Of a stretch of 64,000 nt of DNA, positions 38,857-56,646 are shown piece after piece (the stretch's first letter is position 1; each line of letters starts with the position of its first letter). The stretch lies in the UHGV virus genome UHGV-0098755; one strand, 5' to 3'. The notes beneath the pieces were generated by a model. The model worked only from the letters and a program-made list of their open reading frames with translations, ran no database searches and was not told the DNA's origin. This stretch comes from a virus. Made by a program: the position numbers and the translations under genes.

Positions 38857-38882
38857 AAAAAAGGGAGAGCCGAGGCTCTCCC
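38857..38882 (-). terminator. intrinsic terminator (GGGAGAGC-loop-GCUCUCCC plus U6)
   Basis: Hairpin 38863-38882, A-run 38857-38862 on the plus strand. Confidence 0.6.
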
Positions 38883-38887
38883 TAAAA

Positions 38888-39037: not shown

Positions 39038-40362
39038 TTGATTTCCTCTAAATCTTTGGTGTATTCAGTAACTACATCAGTAGTTTTCCAATATTCGTTT
39101 TCTTCTTTTTTAGCTTTAGCTTCTTCAGCAAGTTTCTTCGCTTCATCGGAAGTCATATGAAAAATATTCATTCCAACTAGTTTATCAACATAAGAAGAAT
39201 ACATATCGATTTTCGAAAGTTCTTCGGTCAGTTCTTTACGAGTTTTACCTTGTACAACAATTTCACCTGAAATTACTTTCTTAATGAAATGTGCCTTGGC
39301 AAAGGCTAAACGAAATGCTGATTCAGTTTCTTTGATTTTGTTATCAATTCGTTTTTGGACATAAGTTTTACGAACTTCAACAAAGTCTTTAATTAAATCA
39401 ACTACGTTATCGTAAACTTGCAGCTTTCCTTTTTCATTAATGACGGTAATATTCTGGGAACGACGCTCAATCAACCCGAAGTCTTTCATGATTTTTGCAT
39501 GGCGTTCTTCTTCGTTATCGCTCAAAGAGTATTCTTTGCGGAATTTAATTTTAAAGCCAAAACCATGCTCACCACAAGCATCATCCCACGTAATGAAGCC
39601 TTTATCTTCAAGCGGGTCTAAGATTTTACTCACATAAGTTTCACGATCATACTTATACGGAATCTCAGTGATGTGCATTTGAGTTCGTGAAGTAAACTTA
39701 TATGTTCCACGAATTTCATATTGTCCATCAATTTCAACGACTTCACCACGAAATTCTGGGAATTCTACCTTCGGTTTAGTTACTTTCTTTCCTTGAAGAG
39801 CTTGCAGTACAGCTTTCTTAACAGAAGAAACGCTATGAGGAAGAATGTAAGTTGCATAACCAGTTGCAATACCGGAAACGCCATTAAGAAGAACAGTAGG
39901 AATAACAGGCAAATAGAAAGCAGGCGGAATGTGTTCTTTATCTTGATGTACCGGAGCATATTCAGTATCTTTATATACGTTATAGAAATTTTTACTTACA
40001 CGAGCAAAAATATAACGACTTGCTGCTGCTTTTTGAACGGTACGAGAACCAAAGTTTCCTTGACCATCTAATAGAGGAAAGTTATTATTCCAAGTATTAG
40101 CCATCAAAGCACCTGCGTCTTGCGCAGAGTTTTCACCATGATGATATCCAAGGTCCGCTACACCACCTGCAATAGAAGCGAGTTTGTGAAACTTATCTTT
40201 ATTTCCTCGTGCCAAATCAAGAGCTCGAGCAATAACAAATCGTTGAACTGGCTTAAATCCATCAATCATATTTGGAATGGCACGATTTTCAACCGTGTAC
40301 ATAGCATAAGCCAATGCTTCATTATCAATGATACTTTTTAAATCGCGATTATTCAGTTGCAT
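39034..40362 (-). CDS. 52: DNA topoisomerase II medium subunit gp52
   Basis: 442 aa, GyrA-like breakage-reunion domain; MQLNNRDLKSIIDNEALAYAMYTVENRAIP. Confidence 0.95.
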   Translation of the reverse strand: MQLNNRDLKSIIDNEALAYAMYTVENRAIPNMIDGFKPVQRFVIARALDLARGNKDKFHKLASIAGGVADLGYHHGENSAQDAGALMANTWNNNFPLLDGQGNFGSRTVQKAAASRYIFARVSKNFYNVYKDTEYAPVHQDKEHIPPAFYLPVIPTVLLNGVSGIATGYATYILPHSVSSVKKAVLQALQGKKVTKPKVEFPEFRGEVVEIDGQYEIRGTYKFTSRTQMHITEIPYKYDRETYVSKILDPLEDKGFITWDDACGEHGFGFKIKFRKEYSLSDNEEERHAKIMKDFGLIERRSQNITVINEKGKLQVYDNVVDLIKDFVEVRKTYVQKRIDNKIKETESAFRLAFAKAHFIKKVISGEIVVQGKTRKELTEELSKIDMYSSYVDKLVGMNIFHMTSDEAKKLAEEAKAKKEENEYWKTTDVVTEYTKDLEEIK

Positions 40363-40366
40363 AAAT

Positions 40367-40507
40367 TTACCATACTAGTGAATGTAGTGCCATAATAACA
40401 TCAGAAATGAAAAGCACGACTTGAATTAATCCGAACATTACTCCATAATATAGTGCTACCAATAAAGCAGCAAGGGCTACTGAGTAGCCCAAGATTTTCT
40501 TAATCAT
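40367..40507 (-). CDS. small hydrophobic membrane peptide (46 aa)
   Basis: MIKKILGYSVALAALLVALYYGVMFGLIQVVLFISDVIMALHSLVW; start overlaps the end of the ac-like ORF. Confidence 0.5.
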   Translation of the reverse strand: MIKKILGYSVALAALLVALYYGVMFGLIQVVLFISDVIMALHSLVW

Positions 40508-40655
40508 TAGATAACAACGCAAATGTTAAATATGCACACATACCCTGAGCTAAAGCTTGCGAAAACACGCTGCTGACATCAATACAGATAGTTAAAACAC
40601 ATGCTACTATCCAACAAATAAATGAAATAACTCCTAATAATTTTGCGATATTCAT
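40500..40655 (-). CDS. ac: Ac-like small membrane protein (51 aa)
   Basis: MNIAKLLGVISFICWIVACVLTICIDVSS...; GAGGAAAA Shine-Dalgarno; position next to stp as in T4. Confidence 0.55.
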   Translation of the reverse strand: MNIAKLLGVISFICWIVACVLTICIDVSSVFSQALAQGMCAYLTFALLSND

Positions 40656-40662
40656 ATTTTCC

Positions 40663-40743
40663 TCACTGGCGTCCGAAGACGCCTTTAGTTTTAAGATTAT
40701 TACGATAGAACTGCATCACGTGTTCGTTATGGAAATTACTCAT
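40663..40743 (-). CDS. stp: Stp peptide (suppressor of three-prime phosphatase; PrrC/EcoprrI modulator)
   Basis: 26-aa [29 protein letters not shown] matching my recollection of T4 Stp; contains GGCGUC-UUCG-GACGCC hairpin. Confidence 0.85.
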
Positions 40744-41201
40744 TAATATGCCTGCAAAACAAATTTAAAGTTATCAGCCAACATACGGTTCATTTCTTCA
40801 AGTGTTTGATACTCAGAATGATGATTACGAGTAAACGCCAAAGCTAACTGACCTTTACCAAATCCCGTCGTCAGAGGTTTCATCTTAGAAGCAGGCAGAT
40901 AAAACACTGTGTATGGAACATTGTTATTTGCAATAGTACGCGCAAGTTGAGACCGGCGTTGACGAATATGACTTAAAACCGCACTGAATCCTTGCTTAGA
41001 ACGCTGATTACCTACATAAAATCGCGCAGATACACACGGACTATCAAATGGACGACCATCTAATTTACTTACTAAAAAGTAAAATCCAGGTTTAGATAAA
41101 ATATCTTTATGTGGAACTCCCAAAAACCATTCACCGTTCTTGATTGTACCAATAACGGTAGCGCCTGCATTGTTCAGATCAGTAACAGTCATATATTTCA
41201 T
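40743..41201 (-). CDS. ndd: nucleoid disruption protein Ndd
   Basis: 152 aa from ATG at 41201 ([25 protein letters not shown]...) with GAGGAAA Shine-Dalgarno; the track ORF starts 16 codons upstream. Confidence 0.85.
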
Positions 41202-41261
41202 ATTAATTTCCTCTAAATTATTTTCTACTCCAAGGCCGCATGAATACACACGGCCATTAAA

Positions 41262-41477
41262 TTAATCATCGCAGTCGACGCTTAATTCCCAGAACTCTTC
41301 TACAGTATAAGTTTCAGTATCATTTTCAATACAGAAACGTTCATTACTATTATTTGCTAAAGTAGCATTAACTGTCGGTTTCTCGCTAGTGCTCTTAAGA
41401 GGTGAAATACGAATTAACTGATCACCGTTATCTAAACAAAAAATTTCACCAACTTTTACATCTTTAAAACTTTTCAT
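41262..41477 (-). CDS. hypothetical protein (71 aa), ndd.x
   Basis: ORF track. Confidence 0.55.
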   Translation of the reverse strand: MKSFKDVKVGEIFCLDNGDQLIRISPLKSTSEKPTVNATLANNSNERFCIENDTETYTVEEFWELSVDCDD

Positions 41478-41592
41478 AATTCACCTCAGGGAGTATAAAA
41501 TCCAAATGCAGTTGTTGACCATCCCATCCAATATGGAAAATTTGCGCCAATGTAAAACATAAGAATATAAAACCAAATGTTTAGTAAATTCA

Positions 41593-41790
41593 TCATTTTA
41601 CACCATTCCAAATTGTTTCAACTACGGATTTTAAACCATTTTGATGAATATCAATTCCGACTACTGTCATCAAATAGATTCCAACCACAACTGAACCCAA
41701 GGCAAAAATCAGCATGAAAATGAATAAAGCTGGAAAAATATTATCGAAAAACCATTCCATAAATGTAAAAGCACTGCGTTTACGCTTCAT
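41593..41790 (-). CDS. small membrane protein (65 aa from ATG at 41790)
   Basis: Hydrophobic core FPALFIFMLIFALGSVVVGIYLMTVVGI; GAGGAAAA Shine-Dalgarno. Confidence 0.5.
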   Translation of the reverse strand: MKRKRSAFTFMEWFFDNIFPALFIFMLIFALGSVVVGIYLMTVVGIDIHQNGLKSVVETIWNGVK

Positions 41791-41797
41791 ATTTTCC

Positions 41798-41911
41798 TCA
41801 CATAAATCCAAAGTAAGCGTTTAATACATCAATCATTAAAACGATTGGGAATATACTCAAAACTACTAGTATTATAACTACATTCCATATAGCTTTAACA
41901 ATCTTTTTCAT
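41798..41911 (-). CDS. small membrane peptide (37 aa from ATG at 41911)
   Basis: MKKIVKAIWNVVIILVVLSIFPIVLMIDVLNAYFGFM; GGAGGAACAGAA Shine-Dalgarno; the track's 69-aa version reads through the promoter. Confidence 0.45.
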   Translation of the reverse strand: MKKIVKAIWNVVIILVVLSIFPIVLMIDVLNAYFGFM

Positions 41912-41938
41912 TTCTGTTCCTCCGTAGTTGATAGGGTA

Positions 41939-41968
41939 ATAATACCACAGAGGAACAGTCTTGTAAAC
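41939..41968 (-). promoter_or_regulatory. putative early promoter (-35 GTTTAC, 18-nt spacer, -10 TATTAT)
   Basis: gtaaac at 41963-41968, ataata at 41939-41944. Confidence 0.45.
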
Positions 41969-42153
41969 AACTTTTTTAAAAATATTCGTAATAAATGTGA
42001 ATACCAACTACTACTGCTGAAACTTGTACAACCCACCATGCACAAGCAATAAGTACAGAATTCAAAATTTTCATAATAACCTCATCACAAAAGTAAATGT
42101 TAAACAAATTACTGGAATACTAATTAACCAAACAAAACACCACCATAATGAAC

Positions 42154-42426
42154 TCATAGTTCAATCTCAGCGATTTTCATTTCATTACTATTAATAGCCG
42201 CTTTAAGACTATCTGAAAGAATTACATTCCAGTGGTCATTCATATGACCATTGACTAAGCGTGTAATTTCTTCGGGAGTTGAAAAATAAGGCGTATCAGA
42301 CTCCCAGTGCGATAGTCCCAAGCGAGTATAAATCATACCTTCATCATCGCTAGAATATTCAACTGACACAAACTCATCAGTTATTTTATGTTTAGCGTAA
42401 TAAAATTTAAATTTCATTTTACTCAA
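42154..42426 (-). CDS. hypothetical protein (90 aa)
   Basis: ORF track. Confidence 0.55.
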   Translation of the reverse strand: MSKMKFKFYYAKHKITDEFVSVEYSSDDEGMIYTRLGLSHWESDTPYFSTPEEITRLVNGHMNDHWNVILSDSLKAAINSNEMKIAEIEL

Positions 42427-42629
42427 TAATCCGCTAAAAGATCGACGATTGCATCACGAAGACACTTATTCGCAATACGTTTAAGAGCAATTTCAGTTTC
42501 TGGGGCATTTTGAATAATCATTGAATTCAATTCAGCCTCAGCAAACTGAAGTTCTTTAACTAATTCAGCTTTATATTTTCCTTGTCCTTTCTTAGCTTTT
42601 GCTCGTTTTAGTTCAGCTGTAGTAAACAT
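42423..42629 (-). CDS. hypothetical protein (68 aa from ATG at 42629)
   Basis: GGAGAATAAA Shine-Dalgarno before MFTTAELKRAKAKKG...; the track's 102-aa version reads through the upstream promoter. Confidence 0.55.
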   Translation of the reverse strand: MFTTAELKRAKAKKGQGKYKAELVKELQFAEAELNSMIIQNAPETEIALKRIANKCLRDAIVDLLADY

Positions 42630-42663
42630 TTTATTCTCCAAATCTGTATCAGTTGATAGTTGT

Positions 42664-42693
42664 ATAGTACCACAGTCCTTGTGGTATGTAAAC
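42664..42693 (-). promoter_or_regulatory. putative early promoter (-35 GTTTAC, 18-nt spacer, -10 TACTAT), spacer palindrome CCACAAGGACUGUGG
   Basis: gtaaac at 42688-42693, atagta at 42664-42669. Confidence 0.5.
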
Positions 42694-42712
42694 CGTTTTG
42701 TGAAAAATTTTT

Positions 42713-43270
42713 TTAAATGGAAAGATACCATCCGTTGTAGTTGCTTTTTCTTACAACCTTACGAAGGTCTTCTCTATCACCGATGAACTTCGGAGTGTAC
42801 TGGATGACACCTGGATAAATTTCTTTAGTGTTGAATATAATTATACAGTCAGCGACTTGATGATTCAGAATGGGCCCTAGATTTATTCCAGAACCGTATG
42901 GATACTCTCCGCTGCATCCTGTTGTTACAGAAATCCAACGTGAGTCAGTTTGGTGTGTCTTAACTTCTACACGAAGCCCGCAGTATCTTGGATGCGCCAA
43001 TACATCCCATGCGTATGTATACGGGTCATTAACATCCTCTTGGCCTTTGTTAACATACCCGCTTAGCCAATCTGCTACAAAAAACTCTGCATACACAGCG
43101 ATACGGCATCTTTCGATGACTTCTGCTTTATCCTGATTTGGATTTTGTTTTAAAGAGTATCTTGCTGTATCAGCAATTTTGACCTTCATTTCACTAGTCA
43201 AGTCATTGTTCGACATGGTAAATGCCGGAATCTGAAACAGTCTCTGTAAACCCGGATTCGTTTTCTGCAT
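42713..43270 (-). CDS. denB: endonuclease IV
   Basis: 185 aa, position between ndd.x genes and rIIB as in T4. Confidence 0.8.
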   Translation of the reverse strand: MQKTNPGLQRLFQIPAFTMSNNDLTSEMKVKIADTARYSLKQNPNQDKAEVIERCRIAVYAEFFVADWLSGYVNKGQEDVNDPYTYAWDVLAHPRYCGLRVEVKTHQTDSRWISVTTGCSGEYPYGSGINLGPILNHQVADCIIIFNTKEIYPGVIQYTPKFIGDREDLRKVVRKSNYNGWYLSI

Positions 43271-43327
43271 TGAACTTTCCTTTTACGTCGGAATCACTGA
43301 TATTCATACAATAAATCATAGTTTCCC

Positions 43328-43352
43328 TTAAAACAAAAGGGCCGAAGCCCTT
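43328..43352 (-). terminator. terminator-like UUCG hairpin (AAGGGC-UUCG-GCCCUU) followed by a U-rich tract
   Basis: Hairpin 43337-43352 immediately after stop at 43356. Confidence 0.5.
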
Positions 43353-43355
43353 ATT

Positions 43356-43550
43356 TTATTTGAATTGCGCAATTCTTTTTTCTAAACAATCTGCGTAAGA
43401 TTTCATTGAGATGAACTGTGAAAGCAGTAATTCTTGTTCAACTTCATTAATCGTTAGAAACTTTGTGCTTTCTAAAAATTTGCTCAGTGCATTAATTTTG
43501 AGCATTAATTGATCGTATTCTTCTTTTACTCGTGCTTGATAACCTAACAT
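43356..43550 (-). CDS. hypothetical protein (64 aa)
   Basis: ORF track. Confidence 0.55.
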   Translation of the reverse strand: MLGYQARVKEEYDQLMLKINALSKFLESTKFLTINEVEQELLLSQFISMKSYADCLEKRIAQFK

Positions 43551-43564
43551 AATTTTCCTTAGTT

Positions 43565-43580
43565 AAGGGCCGAAGCCCTT
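43565..43580 (-). terminator. UUCG hairpin (AAGGGC-UUCG-GCCCUU) overlapping the rIIB stop
   Basis: Same hairpin sequence as at 43337-43352. Confidence 0.4.
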
Positions 43581-44517
43581 ATTTAAATTGTTCAGTAACG
43601 TCTTCAACTACTTCGTATTGGCAGGTACGCATTTTAGCATCGTTGTAATCAATCGGAATTGATACTACATCACGCGGATGCACTTTAACTTTTACAACTC
43701 GACTGGTTGAACTGCCAAAGTGACGAATATAAGATTTAGAACACACATGCAGACCACGAGAACAAGTTTGTGTATCATCGTCATTCACACGAGTACGTGG
43801 CATTTTAACTACTTTACCCGGACTGTTATCAAAGGTGTTTGAGTGACAGTCAAAGTAGTTGTCACGAACTACTTTCCAAGCATAGAAGTAACCATCTTCG
43901 GTGATTTCAATATCGTTTGCTACCAAGAAATCAAAGAGTCGAGATACCGCTTTTTGGCTTGGGTTTTCCAACAGATTTTCCAAGAACGGAAAATAAAATT
44001 CAAAGTTTTCACCTTTTTCCATCGAATCGAGAATACGATCAACTAAACCAGACCGCAATTCAATATTTTGATAGAACAAGCTTCCACCTTCAATTCGAAC
44101 ATCACCAGAAATATATTTTTCAACAGCGCGACGAACATTAATTTTTTGCGCAGCTTCTTCCAACTTATCTGCTACAAGCAGATTAAGAATTTCCTGGAAG
44201 TTTGAATGAGTATTAGGAGTTGCGTTATAAGTTACACCGTCAACAGTAATTGAAATGAATTTTTTAGATGCATTCCAAATAATATCAGATTTAGCAACTG
44301 GAGCAATAACTGCATCGCTATTAACTTTAACTGTAATATCACCGCTAATAGTAACTTTGGAACGCTCAGCTTCTTCAGCATTTTTCAAAACACGACGGAT
44401 GGTGTCAACCGATACACCTTGCCAATCAGCCAATTCCTGCTGAGTATAATTACCACTTGAATACAGTTTAACAATTTCAGCTTGTTCGTTTTTGGTCAGG
44501 CATTTAATATTGTACAT
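43579..44517 (-). CDS. rIIB: rIIB membrane-associated protein
   Basis: 312 aa, MYNIKCLTKNEQAEIVKLYSSGNYTQQELADWQG... Confidence 0.95.
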   Translation of the reverse strand: MYNIKCLTKNEQAEIVKLYSSGNYTQQELADWQGVSVDTIRRVLKNAEEAERSKVTISGDITVKVNSDAVIAPVAKSDIIWNASKKFISITVDGVTYNATPNTHSNFQEILNLLVADKLEEAAQKINVRRAVEKYISGDVRIEGGSLFYQNIELRSGLVDRILDSMEKGENFEFYFPFLENLLENPSQKAVSRLFDFLVANDIEITEDGYFYAWKVVRDNYFDCHSNTFDNSPGKVVKMPRTRVNDDDTQTCSRGLHVCSKSYIRHFGSSTSRVVKVKVHPRDVVSIPIDYNDAKMRTCQYEVVEDVTEQFK

Positions 44518-44528
44518 AATTTTCCTTA

Positions 44529-46706
44529 TTAGGCCGCAAGGGCCTTCATAGTTTTAGCGATTTGAGAAACTTCATCATCACTTAAAGAGTTGCGATAACC
44601 GATGAAGTCGGAAACAATACGGAATTTCTTGGTAAACTCAGCAACCATTTTATCACTGTTTTTTGAAGCATTACGTGATAATTCATCAAAAAGATTAGTT
44701 ACTGTCCAGATGTCATGACCGATGGTACCTTTTCCACCGTTGAAATATATACCCTGCAATGAACTAACCATATTACCAAGGCGAGTATATTCTTCGGAAA
44801 CTTCATCTACACTGAAGTACTTCATCATAAAATCTAGTTCAGGATACTTAATAATTTTATCAATATATCGTTTAGCTGAACTTGAATAACCTACATACTT
44901 ATCATAATCTACATCATCAAAAGCATCTACATATAAATCACGCAAAGTTTCAAAAATACATTGGCACTGACCAAGTTCTTTTACCTTTTTCTGCAAAAGC
45001 GGACGAATAACATAAAATTCATTAATGCCAATAAGATTAGCCATACGAATCAAAATATTCGTAGATGGATGACAAAGCGATGTAGTGCCATCCATAGAGA
45101 AAATATCAGAACGATGCATGTATGCTACATAACCAGTAATTTCATCTGCTTCTGACGTAAGTGTAAACAGTTCCTCTTTTTCCCAGCGCCCGTCTTTAAT
45201 TTCAAACTTAAACGCAGTAGCAGCTTTAGGACGAGGAGCTTTACTTTTAACTGCCTTCGGAATATAACTTTTAACTAAAGCTTCAATTTCTGACAAATAA
45301 TGAATGTTAACTTCATCACTTTCAAACATTGCCATAATATCAGGGAGTAAATCAATCTGCGATTCTACTTCCGGATTAATAAACAGAAGACGCTCATTAT
45401 GATGAATATTCAAAGTGTTATTAAATTCACTATCATCTAACGCATGTGCTAATCCACGGACAATATTAACACGATTTTTAATATTATCAATAACGATATT
45501 AATTTTTGTTGTATTAATGCCAAACAGACGATAACTTGATGCAATGGCTGAAGTTTCATGGCTTTGCTTAATGCGTTTCAGTCGAGGGTCAAGATTTACT
45601 TCATACACAACCCCTGCATTACATAACTTACTGTCAGGTTCAAACATGCTCTGCATCTTCTTATATGACAGATTTTTAGTCGTGAATTTGACTGAATTGC
45701 TAATCATATAATCTCGAGCAGAATATCCCATCTTCATCAATTCACGGTATGTATGACGAGGAGATGTAGATTCTTTAAATCGTTTTACATCTTCATTAAA
45801 TGCTTTCTCACTGAGCTCTTTAACACGCTCAATAATATTTTTACGAGTACGATCATCTAATGAAAGAGCTTCGCGTGATGGAGCAATATCAAGTGAACCC
45901 ATTGGAAACTTAATGTAATTCACTTCATTGCGGATGCTTAACCAGTTACGATCTCTAATAACACCATCAATAGGATAAACAATGCCGCCATAGATAGCAT
46001 ACAATCCACCGCGATCAGGCCAGTATCTTTCTGGATTTACGCCGTAATAGTCATCAAAATCCGGAAAATAATCAATTTCGCGGTCAAGACCATTAATGAT
46101 AGCCAAATCTTTGAACGGTCGCATGATATAAGAAACTTCATAAGCAAAGTTTCTAAAGTCTTTTTCTTCAACTGGAACTACGATTTCAATACCAGTTTTA
46201 TCATCTGGACCCATTTCTTTTACGAATGTAGGTTTAATCTGCGGACCGTCACCATCCATGTAAGCTACATAACCACGAATTTCGCCTTTATGATATGAAG
46301 TAATACTAAATGTATCAGTATAACTAAACGGAGATTTAGAACCTAAACCAAATCCACCAATGAAATCGTTAGATTCAGCCTTGGATGAACTAAAGTATGA
46401 ATTATACAACCCAGGAGAATTATCATCACCCTGAATATCAAAATCGCTCATACCTGGACCAAAATCACGACAAACAAATCGCGGGTCTAATCGTCCGGGA
46501 ACTTGAATGATAAATTTTTCAGGATTTCCATTGAGAGCATGGGCATCAATCATATTAGTAATCAATTCACGGACTACTGCGCGAATCTTGTTTGTATACA
46601 AATCAGATGATAGAATTTTAAATACTTTAGGAGATGCTGTGATGCTAAATGCTTTTGATTTAGAACCATTACCAAGAATTGTTTCTTTTTCAGTGGTGAT
46701 AATCAT
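44529..46706 (-). CDS. rIIA: rIIA protein (GHKL-type ATPase fold)
   Basis: 725 aa, [30 protein letters not shown]... Confidence 0.95.
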
Positions 46707-46716
46707 AATTTCCTCA

Positions 46717-46920
46717 TTAATTCATATTGCGTTTAATAACTTCAGCAACTTCTAGTAGTTCATCTTTAGTTGCAGTGTCGGATTGAATTTTATCTCTAAT
46801 ATCCTTAAAGCGGTTTTTAAACTCTTCGGCTTCTCCCATATCGAAAAAGCGTTGAATGATTCTATATTCTCGATGAACTGCTTTATCAAAAAGTTCTAAA
46901 TTTACTCTATATGATTTCAT
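46717..46920 (-). CDS. hypothetical protein (67 aa), rIIA.1-like
   Basis: ORF track; downstream of a strong early promoter. Confidence 0.6.
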
Positions 46921-46945
46921 TTCAATATCCTCATTTGCCCAATTA

Positions 46946-46975
46946 ATTATACCACATCCTTGTGGTAAAGTAAAC
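46946..46975 (-). promoter_or_regulatory. early promoter (-35 GTTTAC, 18-nt spacer, extended -10 TGGTATAAT)
   Basis: gtaaac at 46970-46975, attata at 46946-46951; spacer palindrome CCACAAGGAUGUGG. Confidence 0.55.
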
Positions 46976-48792
46976 TATTGGCTCATCCATTCTTTACGAA
47001 GGTCAGCATTATCTCCCATGAGCATTTCAAAAAGTTCTTTCCAATTCTCAGGAAGTTTAACAACATCATATACTGGATTTTGAATCATCTCACGATATTC
47101 AGATTTTTCCAAAGAGCCAAGTCCCTTAATATAACGGATGTTATGTTTAGGTAGAGCATCTTTGGCACTCTCATATTCAGCGACTGTATAAAACCATTCT
47201 TGTTTTTTACCGACCTGAGCGATGATTACAGGAGTTTTGACAAAGCGAATTCTTCCTTGTTCAAACAGTTCTGGCCAATTACTGAAAAATCCGAGCAGAG
47301 AAGGATAAATGCTTCCTAGACCATCGTGGTCAGCGTCAGTCATAATAGCAATATTATGATAATTCAAGTTTTCGGCTTTTTCACCAAGAACTAATCCAGT
47401 GATTGCGCAAATATCAAACAGTTCTTTGTTTTTAAGCATATCAGCATATGACATACCCCAACTGTTGAGAACTTTACCACGTAATGGATAACCACCATGA
47501 AGTTCTTTATCACGAACATCAATAAGATATCCAATAGCAGAATCACCCTCAGTCAAGAAAAGAGTAGTATCAGCATCTTTACCACAAAGATTCGCTTTGA
47601 TATGTTTATGAACCTTAGCTTTAGAAGCCTTTTTAGCTGCTTTAGTTTCTGCTGCTTTTTCTGCCGCCAATTTACGAGCTAATGCTGCTTCAATAATCGG
47701 CATCAAAATCGCTTCATTATTCAAAATAGCACGTGAAATCTTTTTAGCATCAAGTTGAATATGACTACGGATTTCACCAAAAGGAGAAGTAAGTCGTTCT
47801 TTAGTTTGAGAATCAAATCGCATGTTTTTCATATCACGAACAAACATAACGATAGTCAAACATTCTTTAACGCGTGCTTTAGTTACATCAATTTTGAACT
47901 TGCGTTTGATTTGTGGAATAAGGTCTTCACAAATATCATCCATAACACAGTCAATGTGATGGCCACCATTCTTAGTATGAATGTTATTGACGTACGTCAA
48001 CTGACGAAAACCATCCGGTGAACGACCAACCGCAATAGAACAGTTTTCTTGTTCTTGAACGATAGCATGTTCATCATATTGGCGTGCATATTTCTTAAAA
48101 TTACCCTGAACCTTTTTACCATTAAAGGTAAATTGAATATCAGGATAAACTACTGCAAGTGTCTGGAGACGATCCAGTGTAATGTCAAGATAAACTTGGG
48201 ACAACTCATTAGTTTCAAATGACATAAAATCAGGAATGAAAGTAACACGAGTTCCTTTCCATTTTCCAGGAATATCTTCCCATGATTTATTTTCCATGCC
48301 ATTTGAACAACGAACTACAATATTATTTTGACCATCACCAGTTTCACCGACAAACATCACAGAAAAAATGTTTGTCAAACTAGAACCAACACCATTCATA
48401 CCGCCAGTGACGCGTTCTTTATCATCACCGAAGTTACCACCTGCTTTTGGAATAGTCCATGCAGCAACAGGACCAGGAATTTCTTCACCGGTAGGTGTTT
48501 TAACCATAGCCTGTGGAATACCGCGACCGTTATCTTCAACTGTTACTTGATTGTTTTTAATAGTAACATTAATTTTATTTGCGAATTTAAACTTAGTACG
48601 AATACCTTCATCTACTGAGTTATCGATAATTTCATCAATAAGCTTAACAAGACCAGGTACATACTGAACACTTTCCCATTTACCAAACAGAAAGCGCTCA
48701 TGCATTTCATTAGCTGAAGAGCCAATGTACATGCCGCTACGCTTTTTGATATGTTCAATATCGCTCAGAATTTTAATTTCATTCTTAATCAT
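46975..48792 (-). CDS. 39: DNA topoisomerase II large subunit gp39, unsplit (ATPase plus C-terminal region in one ORF)
   Basis: 605 aa from ATG at 48792 (MIKNEIKILSDIEHIKKRSGMYIGS...); continuous through the region that is gene 60 in T4. Confidence 0.95.
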   Translation of the reverse strand: MIKNEIKILSDIEHIKKRSGMYIGSSANEMHERFLFGKWESVQYVPGLVKLIDEIIDNSVDEGIRTKFKFANKINVTIKNNQVTVEDNGRGIPQAMVKTPTGEEIPGPVAAWTIPKAGGNFGDDKERVTGGMNGVGSSLTNIFSVMFVGETGDGQNNIVVRCSNGMENKSWEDIPGKWKGTRVTFIPDFMSFETNELSQVYLDITLDRLQTLAVVYPDIQFTFNGKKVQGNFKKYARQYDEHAIVQEQENCSIAVGRSPDGFRQLTYVNNIHTKNGGHHIDCVMDDICEDLIPQIKRKFKIDVTKARVKECLTIVMFVRDMKNMRFDSQTKERLTSPFGEIRSHIQLDAKKISRAILNNEAILMPIIEAALARKLAAEKAAETKAAKKASKAKVHKHIKANLCGKDADTTLFLTEGDSAIGYLIDVRDKELHGGYPLRGKVLNSWGMSYADMLKNKELFDICAITGLVLGEKAENLNYHNIAIMTDADHDGLGSIYPSLLGFFSNWPELFEQGRIRFVKTPVIIAQVGKKQEWFYTVAEYESAKDALPKHNIRYIKGLGSLEKSEYREMIQNPVYDVVKLPENWKELFEMLMGDNADLRKEWMSQ

Positions 48793-48844
48793 CACTTATC
48801 CTCGTTTGGTTTCGGGAATATTATACTCCAATAATCATAAAGCT

Positions 48845-48862
48845 AAAGGCCCGAAGGCCTTT
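48845..48862 (-). terminator. UUCG hairpin (AAAGGCC-UUCG-GGCCUUU) after the lipoprotein gene
   Basis: Inverted repeat abutting stop at 48862. Confidence 0.4.
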
Positions 48863-49131
48863 TATTTAAAACGAATAGTCGAATCCTTGAAGAATAGTCC
48901 AGAACATACTGTTCCTTCTACTTTCTGCCCAGTAGGTCCAATAGCACGAAATCCAGTATGCTGGAAATCATTTTCAGAGCAACCGAACCAATTATATCCA
49001 GTGATTTCAATATTAGTAAAACCACTTGAAGACAAAACTTTGGTTGCATTATCAGCATCAGTACATCCTATTAAAGACACTGCTAATACTAATGCTGCAA
49101 TAGAACGATTAATATATTTCATAATTTTCAC
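48862..49131 (-). CDS. putative lipoprotein (89 aa)
   Basis: Signal peptide with lipobox LIGC (MKIMKYINRSIAALVLAVSLIGCTD). Confidence 0.6.
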   Translation of the reverse strand: MKIMKYINRSIAALVLAVSLIGCTDADNATKVLSSSGFTNIEITGYNWFGCSENDFQHTGFRAIGPTGQKVEGTVCSGLFFKDSTIRFK

Positions 49132-49499
49132 TTAAATTTAATGGCTTGAAGAAGACTAATAACTCTCAAGCGGCTTCTTTCATCTTTAACTGTAAAGGAA
49201 AGAGGGTCACCAGATTTCATAGTGATAGTGCATTCAAAATCAAAATTTTCGGGAACTTCTTCGAAGAAGTCAAATTCTTCAGCATAAATTAGAACATTAC
49301 TCTGAAAACTGTGAAGAATTTTTCCGTCATTTCCAGATGCTGTACTAATCATCGTAACATTATGACCTTTCATATCTTCAACGATAAATTCGCTTGTAGA
49401 TATTACAGCATTAATAGAACCATTCCTATAAATAGCAGACATTAGATATTTCTTTTCTTCGCCTTCGCGAATACGATATTTCTTACCGATTTTAAACAT
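49128..49499 (-). CDS. hypothetical protein (about 123 aa from ATG at 49499)
   Basis: The track ORF starts at GTG 49505; ATG two codons downstream follows an AAGGGTG Shine-Dalgarno. Confidence 0.55.
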   Translation of the reverse strand: MFKIGKKYRIREGEEKKYLMSAIYRNGSINAVISTSEFIVEDMKGHNVTMISTASGNDGKILHSFQSNVLIYAEEFDFFEEVPENFDFECTITMKSGDPLSFTVKDERSRLRVISLLQAIKFK

Positions 49500-49501
49500 A
49501 A

Positions 49502-49678
49502 TCACCCTTTAAGTAAGTCGTAAAATCCACCATTCACATGCTTAGGAGCGGAAACTAACCGAATAGCAATCCGATGACAATCAGGACATACATCAGTATC
49601 CCTTTCAGAAATTTTCTTGATTTTTTCGTATTCTTTTGCGCAGTCTTTGGATTGACATTTATAATCATAAAGAGGCAT
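49502..49678 (-). CDS. zinc-ribbon protein (58 aa), below ORF-track cut-off
   Basis: MPLYDYKCQSKDCAKEYEKIKKISERDTDVCPDCHR... two CxxC pairs; stop overlaps the next start (ATGA). Confidence 0.55.
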   Translation of the reverse strand: MPLYDYKCQSKDCAKEYEKIKKISERDTDVCPDCHRIAIRLVSAPKHVNGGFYDLLKG

Positions 49679-49680
49679 AA

Positions 49681-50100
49681 TTATTCCTTAAAGTGAGCTT
49701 TCAACATCTGATACAATGACCATGCCTGTTCATTATTTTCAATAGTAACTTTCATTACCGGGAATTCTGTGAAATCTTCTATTTGTTCTTGCTCTTCCTG
49801 CTCTTGTTCTTCAGCAGCCTGATATGGATTTTCAACTTCATCAAAGAACCCAGCTTCGTTAGTAGAGAGCCAGATAAAGTTTTCGTCAAGGATATCACCG
49901 CCGGCACAACGTTTGAGTACACCTATGGATGTCATAATTTTAGTAGGACGCCCAAGATAATCAGCATCTAAAATTTTAAAAGGCTCCATACCTAAACGTC
50001 GTGCATAGATTCCGTTATCAGTATGGTCTTTAATAAAATTTTCTTGAGCTTGTTTATTTTTAAATTGATACCATTTATTAACTTCAAATTTAATAGCCAT
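49681..50100 (-). CDS. hypothetical protein (139 aa), possibly goF-like by position
   Basis: ORF track; acidic [10 protein letters not shown] stretch. Confidence 0.6.
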
Positions 50101-50315
50101 TAATAAATTTCCTTCCAGTAAGTTGTGCCGTCTTCAGTAATTTCACGAAATACACCGTAAATTGGCTGTTTATCACCGACTTTCTCATACACATAAACCG
50201 AAGTCAAGTGAGTAAACTTGCTAGTGTGTTCCTTTTGAACTACTACCAAATTTGGATCAAATAATACATCTTCAAATTCGTCATTAGTGCAATTCTGAAC
50301 AATTTTACGTTTCAT
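50100..50315 (-). CDS. hypothetical protein (71 aa)
   Basis: ORF track. Confidence 0.55.
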
Positions 50316-50328
50316 TACAATTTCCTCA

Positions 50329-50607
50329 TTAATTGAACAGTGGAGCGATACGTTTCAGAAGAGTAGCAGCACCTTTGGCGAATTTTACATCATGAAAAAC
50401 AGTTTCTTCTGTAACAACTCGAGCTTTAATATTTTCACAATCCCAATTTTTACGAACAATCTTCAAAAGCTGCAGTAAATCTTTACATTCAGCAATATCG
50501 ATAACACATCCACGAGAATCTTCCATTATCGCACGATAACCGTAAGCCATACCATAATCGTTGAAAGATTGCTCGATGATAATTAAGTTTTCCATTTTAT
50601 TCTCCAA
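50329..50607 (-). CDS. hypothetical protein (92 aa)
   Basis: ORF track; downstream of a palindromic promoter/leader module. Confidence 0.55.
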   Translation of the reverse strand: MENKMENLIIIEQSFNDYGMAYGYRAIMEDSRGCVIDIAECKDLLQLLKIVRKNWDCENIKARVVTEETVFHDVKFAKGAATLLKRIAPLFN

Positions 50608-50692
50608 GTTATTTTCTGTATCAGTAGTTGATATTGATATAGTACCATAATCAACTACTGATGTATATAGTTTTATGAAAAAAATTTAAACT

Positions 50693-51181
50693 TTATGCAT
50701 AGAGAGCATTGCTATAGTGTTTAATCCAACTTTCAGGAATGACTTTGTATGTTCCTAAAAATACCACATTGTACAGCTTAACACCATCTTCTACCCATTG
50801 ATCGGTAATGTATCCACACATAGCACGAGTATAAACAACCCTTCCATCGTCTTTGATAAAGTTAAATTCACAAGGAGCAATGAACTTAATAGCTTGACCG
50901 AGTTTCCACTTAAAGTCTACACCTACATGCGAAGTATCAATCGTTTCAATTCCTTTAGCAGGAACAGCTTTCAAAAACGCAGATTCAAGAAATTTCGCAC
51001 GAACATAGCCAAACTGGGGTTTAGACTTTCCATCTTTAGGAATGATACGCACTTTTACTTCAGAATCTTCATCTTTAACACCGTGTTTAAGCTGAATGCT
51101 TACAATTTCGACCAATTTTCCTGCTGCTTTAGAACGGGATTTATCAGATACACGAGCTAATTCACCAATATTAATAATCAT
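50693..51181 (-). CDS. motB: MotB-like protein (162 aa)
   Basis: Size and position upstream of dexA as in T4; C-terminal GYITDQWVEDGVKLYNVV shared with the next ORF. Confidence 0.6.
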   Translation of the reverse strand: MIINIGELARVSDKSRSKAAGKLVEIVSIQLKHGVKDEDSEVKVRIIPKDGKSKPQFGYVRAKFLESAFLKAVPAKGIETIDTSHVGVDFKWKLGQAIKFIAPCEFNFIKDDGRVVYTRAMCGYITDQWVEDGVKLYNVVFLGTYKVIPESWIKHYSNALYA

Positions 51182-51257
51182 AGTTATCTCTCACTTGTTA
51201 AAAAGATTTTATACTTCACGGGACCATTATACTCTGGTCCCAAGAGTTTGTAAACTA

Positions 51258-51800
51258 TTAATTTAAAATAGCTACCACCGCACTACGAGGTACTACACTA
51301 AAATCACCTGCATGAACAACGTTCAGAAGTTCAACACCATCTTCAATCCATTGGTCTGTTACCCAACCACAGACCGAAATAAATGGAGTCTTGATAGCTA
51401 CTGCATGAGTCAAAAGGTCAGTAGGATCGCATTCTTGAAAGAGGATAAGCTCTGCTTCAAAGACTATAGTTTTAATTACTTCATCATTATCTAAGCGATG
51501 TGCTCGAATCACGTAAGCTTTATTCTTATCATACCAGTTACTTTTTGAAAAGCTTTTAACCACAAACTCGCCTTCACCAAAAGCATTAGTCAATGCTTTA
51601 TAACCCAAATTTAGTTCAGTAGTTTTAATTTCAGTTTCAACCAGTTTGTAGGTTTTGCCAATTTCGATGGTCCGAGCAGTCATAAATGTTTCCTTAATTT
51701 CTAATGGTTTAACAAGAGTGCCGTACATGCTTGCTATATCCATATCAAACGGTTTATCTACAGGATTCGGTGTGTATTCAGGATTATAATTAAATTTCAT
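51258..51800 (-). CDS. MotB paralog (180 aa), motB.1-like
   Basis: C-terminal GWVTDQWIEDGVELLNVV homologous to the preceding ORF. Confidence 0.6.
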   Translation of the reverse strand: MKFNYNPEYTPNPVDKPFDMDIASMYGTLVKPLEIKETFMTARTIEIGKTYKLVETEIKTTELNLGYKALTNAFGEGEFVVKSFSKSNWYDKNKAYVIRAHRLDNDEVIKTIVFEAELILFQECDPTDLLTHAVAIKTPFISVCGWVTDQWIEDGVELLNVVHAGDFSVVPRSAVVAILN

Positions 51801-51802
51801 AA

Positions 51803-52342
51803 TTATCTCATTTCAATAAAATCTACGAGTTCAGCATGCGATTTGCGGAACATTACTTGGTGCCCACCAATGATAACTTCATCTTCAGGAACTTCGTATA
51901 CAGCGAGATAAAATCCTTTAGAAGATAATTCTTCCCGTTCTTCTCGCGTGAACCATCTCATCATATCATATTCGCTAGCGAAAGCAAAATGATAAAGACC
52001 TATAAACCATCCTGGAATATGATATTCTACTCCAACATAATCTTTCTTGAACTTAGTATTAATTACTATATTAGCGTTTTTAACTAATAGTTTATCTTCG
52101 TGTGGTAAAGGAATTCTTTTATTATTATCGCTATGATGCATAAAATTAGGTCTGTCATAACCTACGTGTAATAGCCACTCTTCGCTCCATGAATCTATTA
52201 TACTCCTGTACGGCGTTATTTGAACACAAAGATTTCGACGTATTGTTATAGCATCTTCATAATCAAGAATACTAAACGATGATTCAACACGATAAATTTT
52301 CATTTTATTATCCTCAGTAGCTATGGTGTTATAATACCACAA
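51803..52342 (-). CDS. hypothetical protein (179 aa), motB.2-like
   Basis: ORF track. Confidence 0.6.
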   Translation of the reverse strand: MWYYNTIATEDNKMKIYRVESSFSILDYEDAITIRRNLCVQITPYRSIIDSWSEEWLLHVGYDRPNFMHHSDNNKRIPLPHEDKLLVKNANIVINTKFKKDYVGVEYHIPGWFIGLYHFAFASEYDMMRWFTREEREELSSKGFYLAVYEVPEDEVIIGGHQVMFRKSHAELVDFIEMR

Positions 52343-52366
52343 CTAACCGAGGAAGTAAACAACTTT

Positions 52367-53050
52367 TTATCGTTTTGTTGGAAGAGACAGAGGATCGCAT
52401 TCTTCCTCTGACGGAGCGTCTTCAAGACCCATAGCATATCGCAAAGCATACTTCATCATCAGGATGTCTTTCGCACAGTCATGAATAGAATCATGCGCAA
52501 CGAATCCATCTAAAGTTCCTTTTGGAAGAGGACACGTGGTCATATCACGAACAAGCAGAAGTGCTTCAATTCTGGTACGAATATCACGCTGATTCCAGAA
52601 TTTACATGGTTCTAACTTAAATGTGTCAAGTTCATTCTCGGAAACGCCGTTAAGACGTTGAATATCACGAATGAGATCGACTAAAATTGGAAAATCAAAC
52701 GACATTCCACGGCACCAGCCTTGAGATTTCCAAGGATCGATGTTATGTGCATTGATGTAATCATTAAATTTTGCAATACCATCGATAGTGCTTACATCTT
52801 CATCTGATGGCGCAATATTTTTTCGAGCTTCAGGAGACTGATTTTTCCACCATTCGATAGTGCTTTTAGTAAAAAGACGATGTCCTTTTTGACTTTTTAA
52901 ATCAAATTTGATTTTAATGCCGCGCGAAACTAATTCATCAAATGATTCAACCACTTCTGGGTTAGGGTCAAAGGCAATAACAGCCAAATCAATAACAGCT
53001 GCTTTTTCACCGCTTCCCATTGTTTCAAAATCTATAATAAAATCAAACAT
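52367..53050 (-). CDS. dexA: exonuclease A (DnaQ-like 3'-5' exonuclease)
   Basis: 227 aa, MFDFIIDFETMGSGEKAAVIDLAVIAF... with the DxE exonuclease motif. Confidence 0.9.
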   Translation of the reverse strand: MFDFIIDFETMGSGEKAAVIDLAVIAFDPNPEVVESFDELVSRGIKIKFDLKSQKGHRLFTKSTIEWWKNQSPEARKNIAPSDEDVSTIDGIAKFNDYINAHNIDPWKSQGWCRGMSFDFPILVDLIRDIQRLNGVSENELDTFKLEPCKFWNQRDIRTRIEALLLVRDMTTCPLPKGTLDGFVAHDSIHDCAKDILMMKYALRYAMGLEDAPSEEECDPLSLPTKR

Positions 53051-53292
53051 TAAATTTTCCTTGCTAAATCGCGAATTTGACCTACAGTATAATCTTGGAT
53101 ATAAACTTTATTAATGGGCTCATCAATAAATTTTGCCATAGATTCAATATCTTTTTGTATCTCTTCAAGACTGTATACTATCTTTGAAGCTTTTTCGCGA
53201 ATAGTAACATTATCAGGTCCTGGATTTTCCTCAATGACAGCTTTAACATTTGTCATAAGAGATTTAAACTGATGTAAACTTAATTCAATCAT
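53050..53292 (-). CDS. hypothetical protein (80 aa), dexA.1-like
   Basis: ORF track; paralogous to the next ORF. Confidence 0.55.
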   Translation of the reverse strand: MIELSLHQFKSLMTNVKAVIEENPGPDNVTIREKASKIVYSLEEIQKDIESMAKFIDEPINKVYIQDYTVGQIRDLARKI

Positions 53293-53545
53293 TAATAACC
53301 GCCTTATAAAGATGGCTAATTTCGCCTAAAATATAATCACTGATTGTAACAGTTTTCACTTCACCACAAAAGAATTCTAACGCAATCAAATCTCGTTCAA
53401 TTTCTTCCAATTGAAGCATTAACTTGCCTGATTCAATTTTTACATTTCTGCGATTTTTACTATAAGCTATTTCATATATTTCGCTCACTTTATCTTGAAG
53501 TAGATAAAACTGGTCTTTAGTTATTTCCACGAATAGCTTCCTCAA
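53285..53545 (-). CDS. hypothetical protein (86 aa), dexA.2-like
   Basis: ORF track. Confidence 0.55.
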   Translation of the reverse strand: MRKLFVEITKDQFYLLQDKVSEIYEIAYSKNRRNVKIESGKLMLQLEEIERDLIALEFFCGEVKTVTISDYILGEISHLYKAVIND

Positions 53546-53551
53546 ATTTAA

Positions 53552-54871
53552 TCATACATAAAACACATCATAACGACCGCGTGTTACACCAACATAAAGA
53601 AGCTGTTGAGCCAATTCAGCGTCTGCATAATGAATACAGGGTGTATAGATGAAAGCACGGTCTACAGACATACCCTGTGCTTTATGGAATGTTGACGCAG
53701 GAAGTGCTTTCACTTTACTAAATTGTGATTTAGCATCCCAAAAATCACTCCATGGAGCCTTTCCGCCTTTATTCCAATTTTTGTAAGTTTCTGCCGTTTT
53801 ACCTAAAAATAAGTTAAACTTATACAGCTCTTCATCAGATGAAATTATTTTAATCTTTTCACGATAATATTCATCATCGCCGTAAGTTTCTACTGTTAAA
53901 TCCCAATGACGAATTAGATATTCTCCAGGAACACCACGAGCTTTAACAAATGTTGATGTATACTCTGCTTCTATAATACGAACTAATTGCCCGTTATTAA
54001 AAATAATTTCTGACACAGGCTTTCCATCAATTTTATATGTTTTAATTAATGGTTCCTGCATTACAATAATTTCACCGACAATAAAATCTTTATCAGTTTC
54101 AAAAATCTTTTTACGAATAATGCTATTTAACTTATCAACAGATTTATTCGTAAATGCCATTACACGATTTTCAAACAAATCATCTAGTGATTTGACGATT
54201 GAAAAATAATTTACCATAAAATCGCGTAAAGCGGTATCACCAGTAAATCCACGTACTCCATGCCCGTCAACAATTTTATCATAAATCCACTTACCGTTAC
54301 GAACATCAGTAGCTACATCAATAATAGGAGCATTACTGCGTTTAACTTCAGTGAGTTCACACTGATAAAAGTCTTTGTGTGTAAAGAATGGACTGATATA
54401 AGCAGTGTTTTCTCCTGGGTCAACAGGTCTAATTTGCTTATTATCACCTATTCCAATTATAGTACACCACGATGGAATAGTTGAAAGCAGAATTTTAAAT
54501 AGCTTTCTATCATACATTGACACTTCGTCGCAGATTAATACTCTGCATTTAGCCAAATCTGGTACTTCTTTTTGTTCAAAAAGAACGTTTTCTTCGTATG
54601 TTACTGGGTTAATTTTGAGAATACTGTGAATAGTACTCGCTTCTTTCCCTGATAGTTTTGAAAGAATCTTTTTAGCTGCATGTGTAGGAGCTGCTAAAAT
54701 AATGCCAGTTTCGCCTGTAGATATTAAAGCTTCAATGATGAACTTAGTAAGAGTAGTCTTACCAGTACCGGCAGGTCCATTAATAGTTACATGATGTTTC
54801 TTTTCTTTGATAGCCCTCATAACGATGTTAAAGGCATTTTTCTGGCCTTTTGTCAAATCATCAAATGTCAT
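53552..54871 (-). CDS. dda: Dda DNA helicase (SF1B)
   Basis: 439 aa; Walker A GPAGTGKTT; MTFDDLTKGQKNAFNIVMRAIKEKKHHVTINGPAGTGKT. Confidence 0.95.
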   Translation of the reverse strand: MTFDDLTKGQKNAFNIVMRAIKEKKHHVTINGPAGTGKTTLTKFIIEALISTGETGIILAAPTHAAKKILSKLSGKEASTIHSILKINPVTYEENVLFEQKEVPDLAKCRVLICDEVSMYDRKLFKILLSTIPSWCTIIGIGDNKQIRPVDPGENTAYISPFFTHKDFYQCELTEVKRSNAPIIDVATDVRNGKWIYDKIVDGHGVRGFTGDTALRDFMVNYFSIVKSLDDLFENRVMAFTNKSVDKLNSIIRKKIFETDKDFIVGEIIVMQEPLIKTYKIDGKPVSEIIFNNGQLVRIIEAEYTSTFVKARGVPGEYLIRHWDLTVETYGDDEYYREKIKIISSDEELYKFNLFLGKTAETYKNWNKGGKAPWSDFWDAKSQFSKVKALPASTFHKAQGMSVDRAFIYTPCIHYADAELAQQLLYVGVTRGRYDVFYV

Positions 54872-55179
54872 CGTAAATTCCCTGCAATTGGTATACTAAC
54901 AATACGCCCAGTATCTAAAATTCGCTGATATAATCTTTGTGTGTCTACATCAGGCTTAACATGTTTAACTTCTATTTTATTAAACCAAAACTTGCGTGGA
55001 GTCTCAACTAATCTCGGAATTCCCATACCTAAAGCTAGTTGATACTGCTCTTTAAGAGTAGTAAATACTTTATCAGCAATCTCCCTTTCAAAAAATACAG
55101 CAGGGCGATGTTCATCAAGAGGAACAGGCACCGCAAATCCATCTTTATCTCTATACACTATCGCATATACATAAAACAT
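54868..55179 (-). CDS. hypothetical protein (103 aa), dda.1-like
   Basis: ORF track. Confidence 0.55.
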   Translation of the reverse strand: MFYVYAIVYRDKDGFAVPVPLDEHRPAVFFEREIADKVFTTLKEQYQLALGMGIPRLVETPRKFWFNKIEVKHVKPDVDTQRLYQRILDTGRIVSIPIAGNLR

Positions 55180-55180
55180 A

Positions 55181-55927
55181 TTATCCTCGGATAAGTTTAA
55201 AAATTGAACAATTTAGCGGGTATCCTCTTTTCAGTTTAAGTTTATCAATAAAAGACAAATTTTGATACCGCTCTACACCTTGAATAATTTTATCACACAT
55301 ATCATATTGCATTTCTGCTTCTGACAACTTTTTCACAGTTTTCCAATCCGAGCCTTTAAGAAGAACGTTCAGTTTAACAACTTCAGCGCCTTCTGCTATA
55401 CGAGAACCATCAATACGAGCTTTGAGTGCTATAATCGTTAGCTTAACGTCAGAGGTTTGTTTTGATTTAGAAAGCTGGGAAATGTGCTCAATTCGGTTTT
55501 CGCGTTTTTTCTGTATAGCTTTAATTTGATTATAAGTCTTTTTGATTTTAGCCCATTTCTTTTCATCTAAATTTAGTTTATGAACTTTTTTCGCAGATGA
55601 ACGACCAATTCGCAAAGCAAATAAATCACGCTTTTCAATCAACTCTTCTAAAGTATAATCAGAACGAAACGTATTATACTTTTTCTTTACTGCAATAACA
55701 TTCCCTTTAATGTATCCAACGTTATTATCAAAACGTTCTAATGATAATTTCTCTCCTTCAATACGATTATCAAAAGGTTCTCCCGAGTAAGCACAAACTT
55801 TCTGATCTAAAATGTTCTTAATGTAATTGAAGTCTAAGTTAAAATCTTTAGAACGTCTTTTAGCAGATGCCTGAGTATGCTCTAGACGACGTTTAATTTT
55901 ACGAATTTGATTATTAGTCAGTTTCAT
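55181..55927 (-). CDS. basic lysine-rich protein (248 aa), possibly Srd-like by position
   Basis: ORF track; located between dda.1 and modA as srd is in T4; the name is uncertain. Confidence 0.5.
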   Translation of the reverse strand: MKLTNNQIRKIKRRLEHTQASAKRRSKDFNLDFNYIKNILDQKVCAYSGEPFDNRIEGEKLSLERFDNNVGYIKGNVIAVKKKYNTFRSDYTLEELIEKRDLFALRIGRSSAKKVHKLNLDEKKWAKIKKTYNQIKAIQKKRENRIEHISQLSKSKQTSDVKLTIIALKARIDGSRIAEGAEVVKLNVLLKGSDWKTVKKLSEAEMQYDMCDKIIQGVERYQNLSFIDKLKLKRGYPLNCSIFKLIRG

Positions 55928-55956
55928 ATTTTTCTCACGGACGGTTGACTACTTAT

Positions 55957-55986
55957 ACTATAACATTTTTACTTCAGGTTGTAAAC
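55957..55986 (-). promoter_or_regulatory. putative early promoter (-35 GTTTAC, 18-nt spacer, -10 TATAGT)
   Basis: gtaaac at 55981-55986, actata at 55957-55962. Confidence 0.5.
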
Positions 55987-56043
55987 AACTTTATGTAAAA
56001 ATGCTTTAAAAATTTCATGGTATAATGAATCTAAGTCCTTCCA

Positions 56044-56646
56044 TTATAGATTAAATCCTTCAAAATCAAGAGTATAGATAGTGTATGTTGAATACTTTTT
56101 GTACTCATATCTATCTGCAATTCTAAATACACTTCCAGCTGGTATCATTACTTCTTGTTCATCTGAAACTAATTCCATATTACGATAGCGATGGCTATCC
56201 GGAAACTTAAAACTTGGACTATATTCTTTACAACGTAGAGCTTTTATAGCATACTCCTGGAAATTAAATACCATAGGAGCTTTGAATTCAAAAATAACTT
56301 GTGTATTGTATTCTAATCCAGAAGCAAAATGTAGAGCTATATTTTTATCATATGAAGCTGATACTACTTTATCAAATGTAATAATATCAATTCCTTGATT
56401 TAACACCTGCTTAGTTTCAACTGGAACACCTCTCCAAAGAGGTTTATCGTTTGGAACCAAACGAGATTTGATTATTTCATTTAACCAAGAATGATCGTCT
56501 GGCTTATTAGTAATACAATGAATTAAAAGTTCAATTTCGGATAAATTAAACCCTTCAGAAAGTAATTCTTCACGAATAGAAGCACGCACCGATGCATCCA
56601 TTGATTTTATTTTAAAATCTTTTAGTTGCATTACTGAGTATTTCAT
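56044..56646 (-). CDS. modA: ADP-ribosyltransferase ModA
   Basis: 200 aa; ART-type EQE motif (SDEQEVMIPAGS); tandem with a 207-aa paralog. Confidence 0.8.
   Translation of the reverse strand: MKYSVMQLKDFKIKSMDASVRASIREELLSEGFNLSEIELLIHCITNKPDDHSWLNEIIKSRLVPNDKPLWRGVPVETKQVLNQGIDIITFDKVVSASYDKNIALHFASGLEYNTQVIFEFKAPMVFNFQEYAIKALRCKEYSPSFKFPDSHRYRNMELVSDEQEVMIPAGSVFRIADRYEYKKYSTYTIYTLDFEGFNL

Follow-up and report, generated by a model that had tools for sequence, protein, structure and literature searches.

An unsplit topoisomerase gene 39, without gene 60 or a bypass element, in a Tequatrovirus genome

In bacteriophage T4 the large subunit of the type II DNA topoisomerase is divided between gene 39 and gene 60, with a cassette that carries the HNH homing endonuclease gene mobA between them (Huang et al. 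1988; Bonocora et al. 2011). The T4 record (NC_000866) gives gene 39 at 3778..5328, followed by mobA, 60.1 and a gene 60 joined from 2458..2802 and 2853..2990, and annotates a 50-nt "non-coding translational bypass region" at 2803..2852. This agrees with the original prediction for the locus described here, which gave the T4 gene as split by a mobA-type insert, with a 50-nt bypass in gene 60. The same prediction gave an unsplit form for T2 and T6, and each of these records (AP018813 and AP018814, respectively) indeed carries a single CDS of 1,818 nt at 2447..4264. RB32 annotates its gene as "60plus39", and the literature agrees that unsplit gene 39 is the majority state (PMC3014915). The 5' end of the MobA element has been placed at nt 1399-1419 (aa 466-473) of the gene and its 3' end, in the T4 clade, just after D490/G491 plus 9 nt, with the element replacing 55-75 nt of parental sequence (bioRxiv 10.1101/2022.08.31.505936). 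According to Bonocora et al. 2011, as cited in 10.1101/2022.08.31.505936, MobA nicking and homing have been demonstrated in T2, the 64-nt parental segment contains the nick region, and the bypass insert protects invaded genomes and disrupts the sequence ~20 nt downstream. Cryo-EM structures exist for both the unsplit T6 enzyme (PDB 8YLU, 8YO5 and 8YOD) and the split T4 enzyme. The T2 and T6 enzymes consist of two subunit types, and ATP-dependent DNA relaxation by T6 Topo II has been shown experimentally (PMC11461880).

The window analysed here is a 64,000-nt stretch of the virus genome UHGV-0098755, collinear with T4 125,260..168,903 and continuing into 1..20,781. Gene 39 lies on the minus strand as one ORF free of stops and frameshifts. 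Counted from GTG, the ORF spans 46975..48795 and is 606 aa long; the ATG at 48792 gives 605 aa with the N-terminus MIKNEIKILS, and this start matches those annotated in T4, T2, T6 and RB32. The single 605-aa ORF originally predicted was right in position and length, although its strand, minus, had been left unstated. The gene order is 39 - rIIA.1 - rIIA, with only a 54-nt spacer between 39 and rIIA.1, and is identical in RB32, T2 and T6. A scan for promoter and terminator consensus sequences around gene 39 gave 9 matches, against 10.2 ± 3.4 in shuffled controls, so no expression signals are claimed for the gene. Upstream, 39.1 is 86-89 aa in the window versus 65 aa in T4. Between 39.1 and 39.2 is a 125-aa ORF (49128..49505, minus) that T4 lacks and that has no Pfam match; its slot holds a 123-aa ORF in RB32 (ORF005c, "similar to RB69ORF005c") and in T6, a correspondence of position. 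A 92-aa ORF without a Pfam match (50329..50607, minus) lies between cef and motB.

Table 1. Positions of gene 39, its MobA site and related features in the 64,000-nt window
Feature	Position	Strand	Remarks
td intron with I-TevI	td 17590..19466; I-TevI ORF 18049..18786	minus	group I intron; intact 245-aa ORF, 233/245 identical to T4
gp38, T4-type	34803..35354		183 aa, 94% nt identity to T4
gene 52, GyrA-like medium subunit	39034..40362	minus	intact 442-aa ORF, 439/442 identical to T4 gp52
rIIA.1 (67 aa)	46717..46920	minus	Pfam T4_RIIA1, E=2e-33; directly downstream of gene 39
gene 39, unsplit ("60plus39")	46975..48792	minus	605-aa GyrB-like large subunit of phage type IIA topoisomerase
empty MobA insertion site	47311..47374	minus	gene nt 1419-1482, 64-nt "parental" segment; in T4-type genomes the MobA element takes its place
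Gly491 codon GGT	47320..47322	minus	from base-level alignment; single codon matching the duplicated GGA take-off and landing codons of T4

The gene 39 product carries the Pfam domains HATPase_c (aa 47-149, E=2e-9), DNA_gyraseB (the transducer; aa 250-384, E=1.4e-13) and TOPRIM_C (E=3.7e-7). The GHKL ATPase motifs are intact, with the N-box at E54 (EIIDNSVD at 54), DNGRG at 87 and GMNGVG at 131, as are the transducer QTK loop at 329 and the Toprim E...DxD metal site, made up of EGDSA at 415 (E415) and DADHD at 486-490 (D486/D488). The structure paper on T6 Topo II gives the Toprim metal residues as E415, D486 and D488, which is also the numbering in the window protein (PMC11461880). One ORF encodes the entire GyrB-like large subunit: ATPase, transducer and Toprim. 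The domain order GHKL ATPase - transducer - Toprim is also that of cellular type IIA B modules (the N-terminal half of eukaryotic Topo II, ParE and GyrB), and full-length sequence matches were obtained with human Topo IIα/β and yeast Topo II (E about 1e-56 to 1e-59), ParE and GyrB. However, the similarity to the cellular enzymes is distant, and the phage subunit is a separate, small protein that pairs with gp52. The T4 enzyme is known to relax DNA but not to supercoil it.

The closest relatives are the unsplit 605-aa proteins of RB32 (604/605 identical), T2 (603/605) and T6 (602/605), to which the protein aligns without gaps, with the same start and stop and within the same neighbourhood 39.1 - 39 - rIIA.1 - rIIA. 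It differs from them by 1-3 substitutions: N551 is S in all three, and T2 or T6 also departs from it at F70, D173 and Q526. Residues 1-605 align to 1-605 of the T6 Topo II chain 8ylu_C (1384 bits), and the product also matches the engineered T4 gp39-gp60 fusion 8yo3_C. At the nucleotide level the gene is ~3.1-3.5% divergent from T2, T6 and RB32, nearly all of it synonymous. Codon differences from T2 number 60 synonymous and 2 nonsynonymous, and thus gene 39 is under strong purifying selection. That the continuity is only apparent, the ORF being a product of misassembly or an inactive pseudogene, is effectively refuted by the identity to RB32, T2 and T6 and by the 60:2 codon ratio. The sequence yielded no support for it, the reading frame is unbroken with all catalytic motifs intact, and the protein is 604/605 identical to that of an independently sequenced phage. 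The product names in the T2 and T6 records look unreliable and are thus unfit for annotation transfer: rIIA.1 is called "transaldolase", a 2,265-nt CDS in the nrdA slot, of the same length as T4 and window nrdA, bears the name "single stranded DNA-binding protein", and in AP018813 gene 39 of T2 is a "hypothetical protein".

In BLASTP comparisons with T4, aa 1-473 align to gp39 1-473 (98.5% identity) and aa 472-605 to gp60 27-160 (94.8% identity, E=5e-95), both without gaps. The alignment proposed with the original prediction, against T4 genes 39 and 60 and T2 gene 39, therefore identifies the C-terminal part as related to gp60. That part had been put at ~90 residues and measures 134. T4 gp39 474-516 and gp60 1-26, the insert-derived C-terminal and N-terminal extensions, have no counterpart in the window protein by BLASTP. 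At the DNA level, window 49124..47375 corresponds to T4 5661..3911 and window 47310..46417 to T4 2793..1900. The enzyme is orthologous and the flanking genes are alike, but T4 has in addition an insert of 1,011 nt (3910..2900; the gp39 C-terminal extension, mobA, 60.1 and the gp60 N-terminal extension), for which blastn and tblastn find no match either here or in the rest of the window. The T4 50-nt gap (2803..2852) likewise has no counterpart at the gene 39 locus in the DNA alignment, and none of its 15-mers occurs anywhere in the 64-kb window. When the whole window was searched with the 1,108-nt T4-specific segment (low-stringency blastn and tblastn), the only hit was window 47366..47321, whose 46 nt are 80% identical to T4 2899..2854, the insert-borne homR; tblastn with all insert-encoded peptides returned only the 20-aa homR counterpart. 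There is no second gene-39-like or gene-60-like copy in the window. The absence of gene 60 and of a bypass element, as first proposed, is borne out.

The window sequence around the bypass position is GAC CAC GAT GGT CTA GGA AGC (D-H-D-G491-L-G-S), and T4 reads GAT CAC GAT GGA [TAG CCTTCGGGC...50 nt...GGA] TTA GGT TCT. The T4 gap falls just after G491 of the window gene. The T4 take-off and landing pair of GGA codons is missing from the window, where the Gly491 GGT runs straight on into CTA GGA (Leu-Gly); the in-gap stop codon, the hairpin and the gap itself are missing too. In T4 the insertion point of the MobA cassette is between E415 and the DxD motif. Thus, the metal site is divided between gp39 and gp60 in T4, whereas in the window it lies on a single chain.

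Identity to T4 gene 39 extends to gene nt 1418 (window 47375) and starts again at 47310. These breakpoints (nt 1418/1419, and after G491) fit the published geometry of MobA insertion. Unlike T4, the window keeps the 64-nt parental segment between them, which is 61/64 identical to both T2 and RB32 and is contiguous with the downstream sequence. The cassette was either never inserted here or has left no trace, and translational bypass is therefore not needed. A cassette once present could have been deleted precisely, or exchanged for an uninvaded allele by recombination, so that the gene became continuous again. Progressive decay and loss of MobA elements, with secondary re-fusion in one clade, has been reported (Manning & Atkins, 10.1101/2022.08.31.505936). 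In the same direction, two of the three synonymous differences of the segment from T2, T6 and RB32 match T4 homR (GAC at D486 and CAC at H489). However, such a secondary loss ("hit and run") is improbable. The C- and N-terminal extensions, which persist after loss of the endonuclease or the bypass (10.1101/2022.08.31.505936), have left no trace in the window, and the segment is of the parental T2/RB32 type, its 46-nt overlap with T4 homR being far less similar (80%). Moreover, an identical 90-nt site haplotype is found in four other unsplit phages (ECO07P2, NBEco003, vB_EcoM_P8 and BMB16), and thus the two homR-matching third-position transitions are ordinary polymorphism. It is highly doubtful that the haplotype is the footprint of a past MobA gene conversion or was selected because MobA cleaves it less. 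Conversion was rejected as the origin of the sites shared with homR on account of the haplotype's occurrence in other unsplit phages and the missing extensions; a reduced-cleavage variant, if real, would make the locus a natural "resistant empty site".

The uninvaded gene is the common form among phage records. The 2.9-kb locus is covered in one place to at least 80% in 494 records. The uninterrupted 90-nt site is present in 425 records and the T4 MobA cassette in 43, a complete list that includes many T4 laboratory isolates and duplicate RefSeq/GenBank entries. Unsplit gene 39 is the majority and default state of T-even phages, and the T4 split with ribosome bypass is a rare exception. Sequence and collinearity, the domains present, the missing cassette, purifying selection and the frequency of the unsplit form in the phage population together point to an uninvaded, ancestral-type allele of T-even gene 39 in which one ORF specifies the entire large subunit, a reading to which we give a probability of roughly 93% and which nothing in the sequence contradicts. 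The feature is real, probably functional and ordinary, and as the unsplit form is both common and described in the literature, it is already known. Its import is little beyond correct annotation: the name should be gene 39 (DNA topoisomerase II large subunit, unsplit), with no gene 60 or recoding event to annotate at gene 39. The locus is a further example of the uninvaded state at a well-studied homing site. Since the parental segment resembles that of T2, a nicked substrate, this "empty site" is presumably susceptible to MobA and a potential homing recipient in mixed infection. Experiments on MobA homing could use it as a natural recipient allele.

The window also encodes the partner subunit, gp52 (Table 1). 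As gp39 is unsplit, the holoenzyme is predicted to contain two subunit types (gp39 and gp52) and not three, in the manner of the T2 and T6 enzymes. Judged by near-identity to the characterised T6 enzyme (99.5%), the two subunits probably assemble into an active heterotetramer. This T2/T6-like enzyme would cut both strands of one DNA duplex in an ATP-dependent manner and pass a second duplex through the break.

The original prediction combined the unsplit gene 39 with a T4-type td intron and gp38 to call the genome a mosaic between T4-like and T2-like states. Both markers are present as claimed (Table 1) and T2 lacks them, its 861-nt td being intronless and its gp38 a 262-aa protein of the adhesin type. 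An Rfam scan of the whole window at gathering thresholds reported no family, group I intron included; taking this as absence of the td intron was rejected, as both the intron and its I-TevI ORF are seen when the window is aligned with T4. Perhaps the Rfam model fails because of the large ORF that the intron contains.

The marker facts stand, but the mosaic drawn from them is weak. Unsplit gene 39 is the default state and not a T2 trait. The td intron with I-TevI is found in ~199 phage records, among them T6, which already joins it to an unsplit gene 39. T4-type gp38 occurs at an identity of at least 90% in ~80 Tequatrovirus records, and several gp38-positive phages (ECO07P2, W143, ESh18, teqhad, SHBML-50-1 and PhiZZ30) are absent from the 43-record MobA list. 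A literal recent recombinant, with gene 39 from a T2-like parent and td and gp38 from a T4-like one, would explain the combination of an unsplit gene 39 with the two T4-type markers. It would also accommodate a 119-aa ORF between td and frd (19511..19870, minus; no Pfam family) that T4 lacks and that is 98% identical to T2 EcT2_00240. However, this origin is very improbable, and it was rejected on the even divergence from all references. Gene 39 DNA is 96.9% identical to RB32, 96.5% to T2, 96.5% to T6 and 95.6% to the collinear part of T4 gene 39. The divergence is about even (3.1-4.4%), with the mismatches evenly spread and no near-identical block, and thus no block from a recent T2 or T4 donor is seen. 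Over 24 kb (36000..60000), the best whole-region matches in the INPHARED collection of August 2025 (ADUt, SYGD1, EcNP1 and ESh17) reach only ~95% identity, which places the source Tequatrovirus at or near the species boundary relative to all of that collection. The genome is not T4-like in its mobile elements either, as only one of the six T4 endonuclease elements of the covered region, I-TevI, is present; MobA, the nrdB intron with I-TevIII, MobE, SegG and SegF are absent from the window in the alignment to T4. To speak of a mosaic over-interprets markers that are independently mobile or hypervariable modules. In T-even phages selfish and hypervariable modules ordinarily assort independently; the pattern here is of that kind and not a specific T4/T2 hybrid, and it confirms such assortment for MobA, I-TevI, I-TevIII, MobE, SegF and SegG.

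The slots of the absent elements were located individually. The window nrdB is continuous (12755..13924, minus; 389 aa), with its junction at 13257/13260 where T4 has the I-TevIII intron (T4 138458..139057). The segG gene, which in T4 lies between 32 and 59, is absent at window 23128..23164. The segF slot between soc and 56 (59763..60142, ~380 nt) holds two small ORFs, 59742..59951 and 59948..60142. Between nrdA and nrdB, in the exact slot of T4 mobE, lies a gene for a D12-class N6-adenine DNA methyltransferase (13959..14762, minus; 267 aa; PF02086, E=8e-24) that is 34% identical to T4 Dam. As the window carries the canonical dam as well, at 60725..61504, the phage has two Dam-like genes. A methyltransferase occupies the nrdA/nrdB slot in 8 of 388 flank-matching phage records, for example ECO07P2, 236Ecol005PP, T4_ev240 and vB_Eco_NR1.

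Further differences from T4 are scattered through the window. Nothing in the window corresponds to T4 gene 61.2 (T4 19142..19756); the junction is at 62975/62976. Insertions relative to T4, all on the minus strand, are a 175-aa ORF between cd.2 and cd.3 (7872..8399; no Pfam match), 90-aa and 102-aa ORFs between ndd.6 and denB (42154..42731; no Pfam match), and a stretch of ~510 nt between frd and frd.1 (20459..21048) that carries an 81-aa ORF and a 110-aa DUF7247 ORF (Pfam E=3e-44). The distal long tail fibre protein gp37 (31158..34775, plus) is 1,205 aa long versus 1,026 aa in T4; its alignable central and C-terminal parts are ~75-81% identical to T4 gp37 and the other parts do not align. This divergent gp37 is followed by the T4-type chaperone gp38, which is 99.8% identical to the gp38 of ECO07P2.
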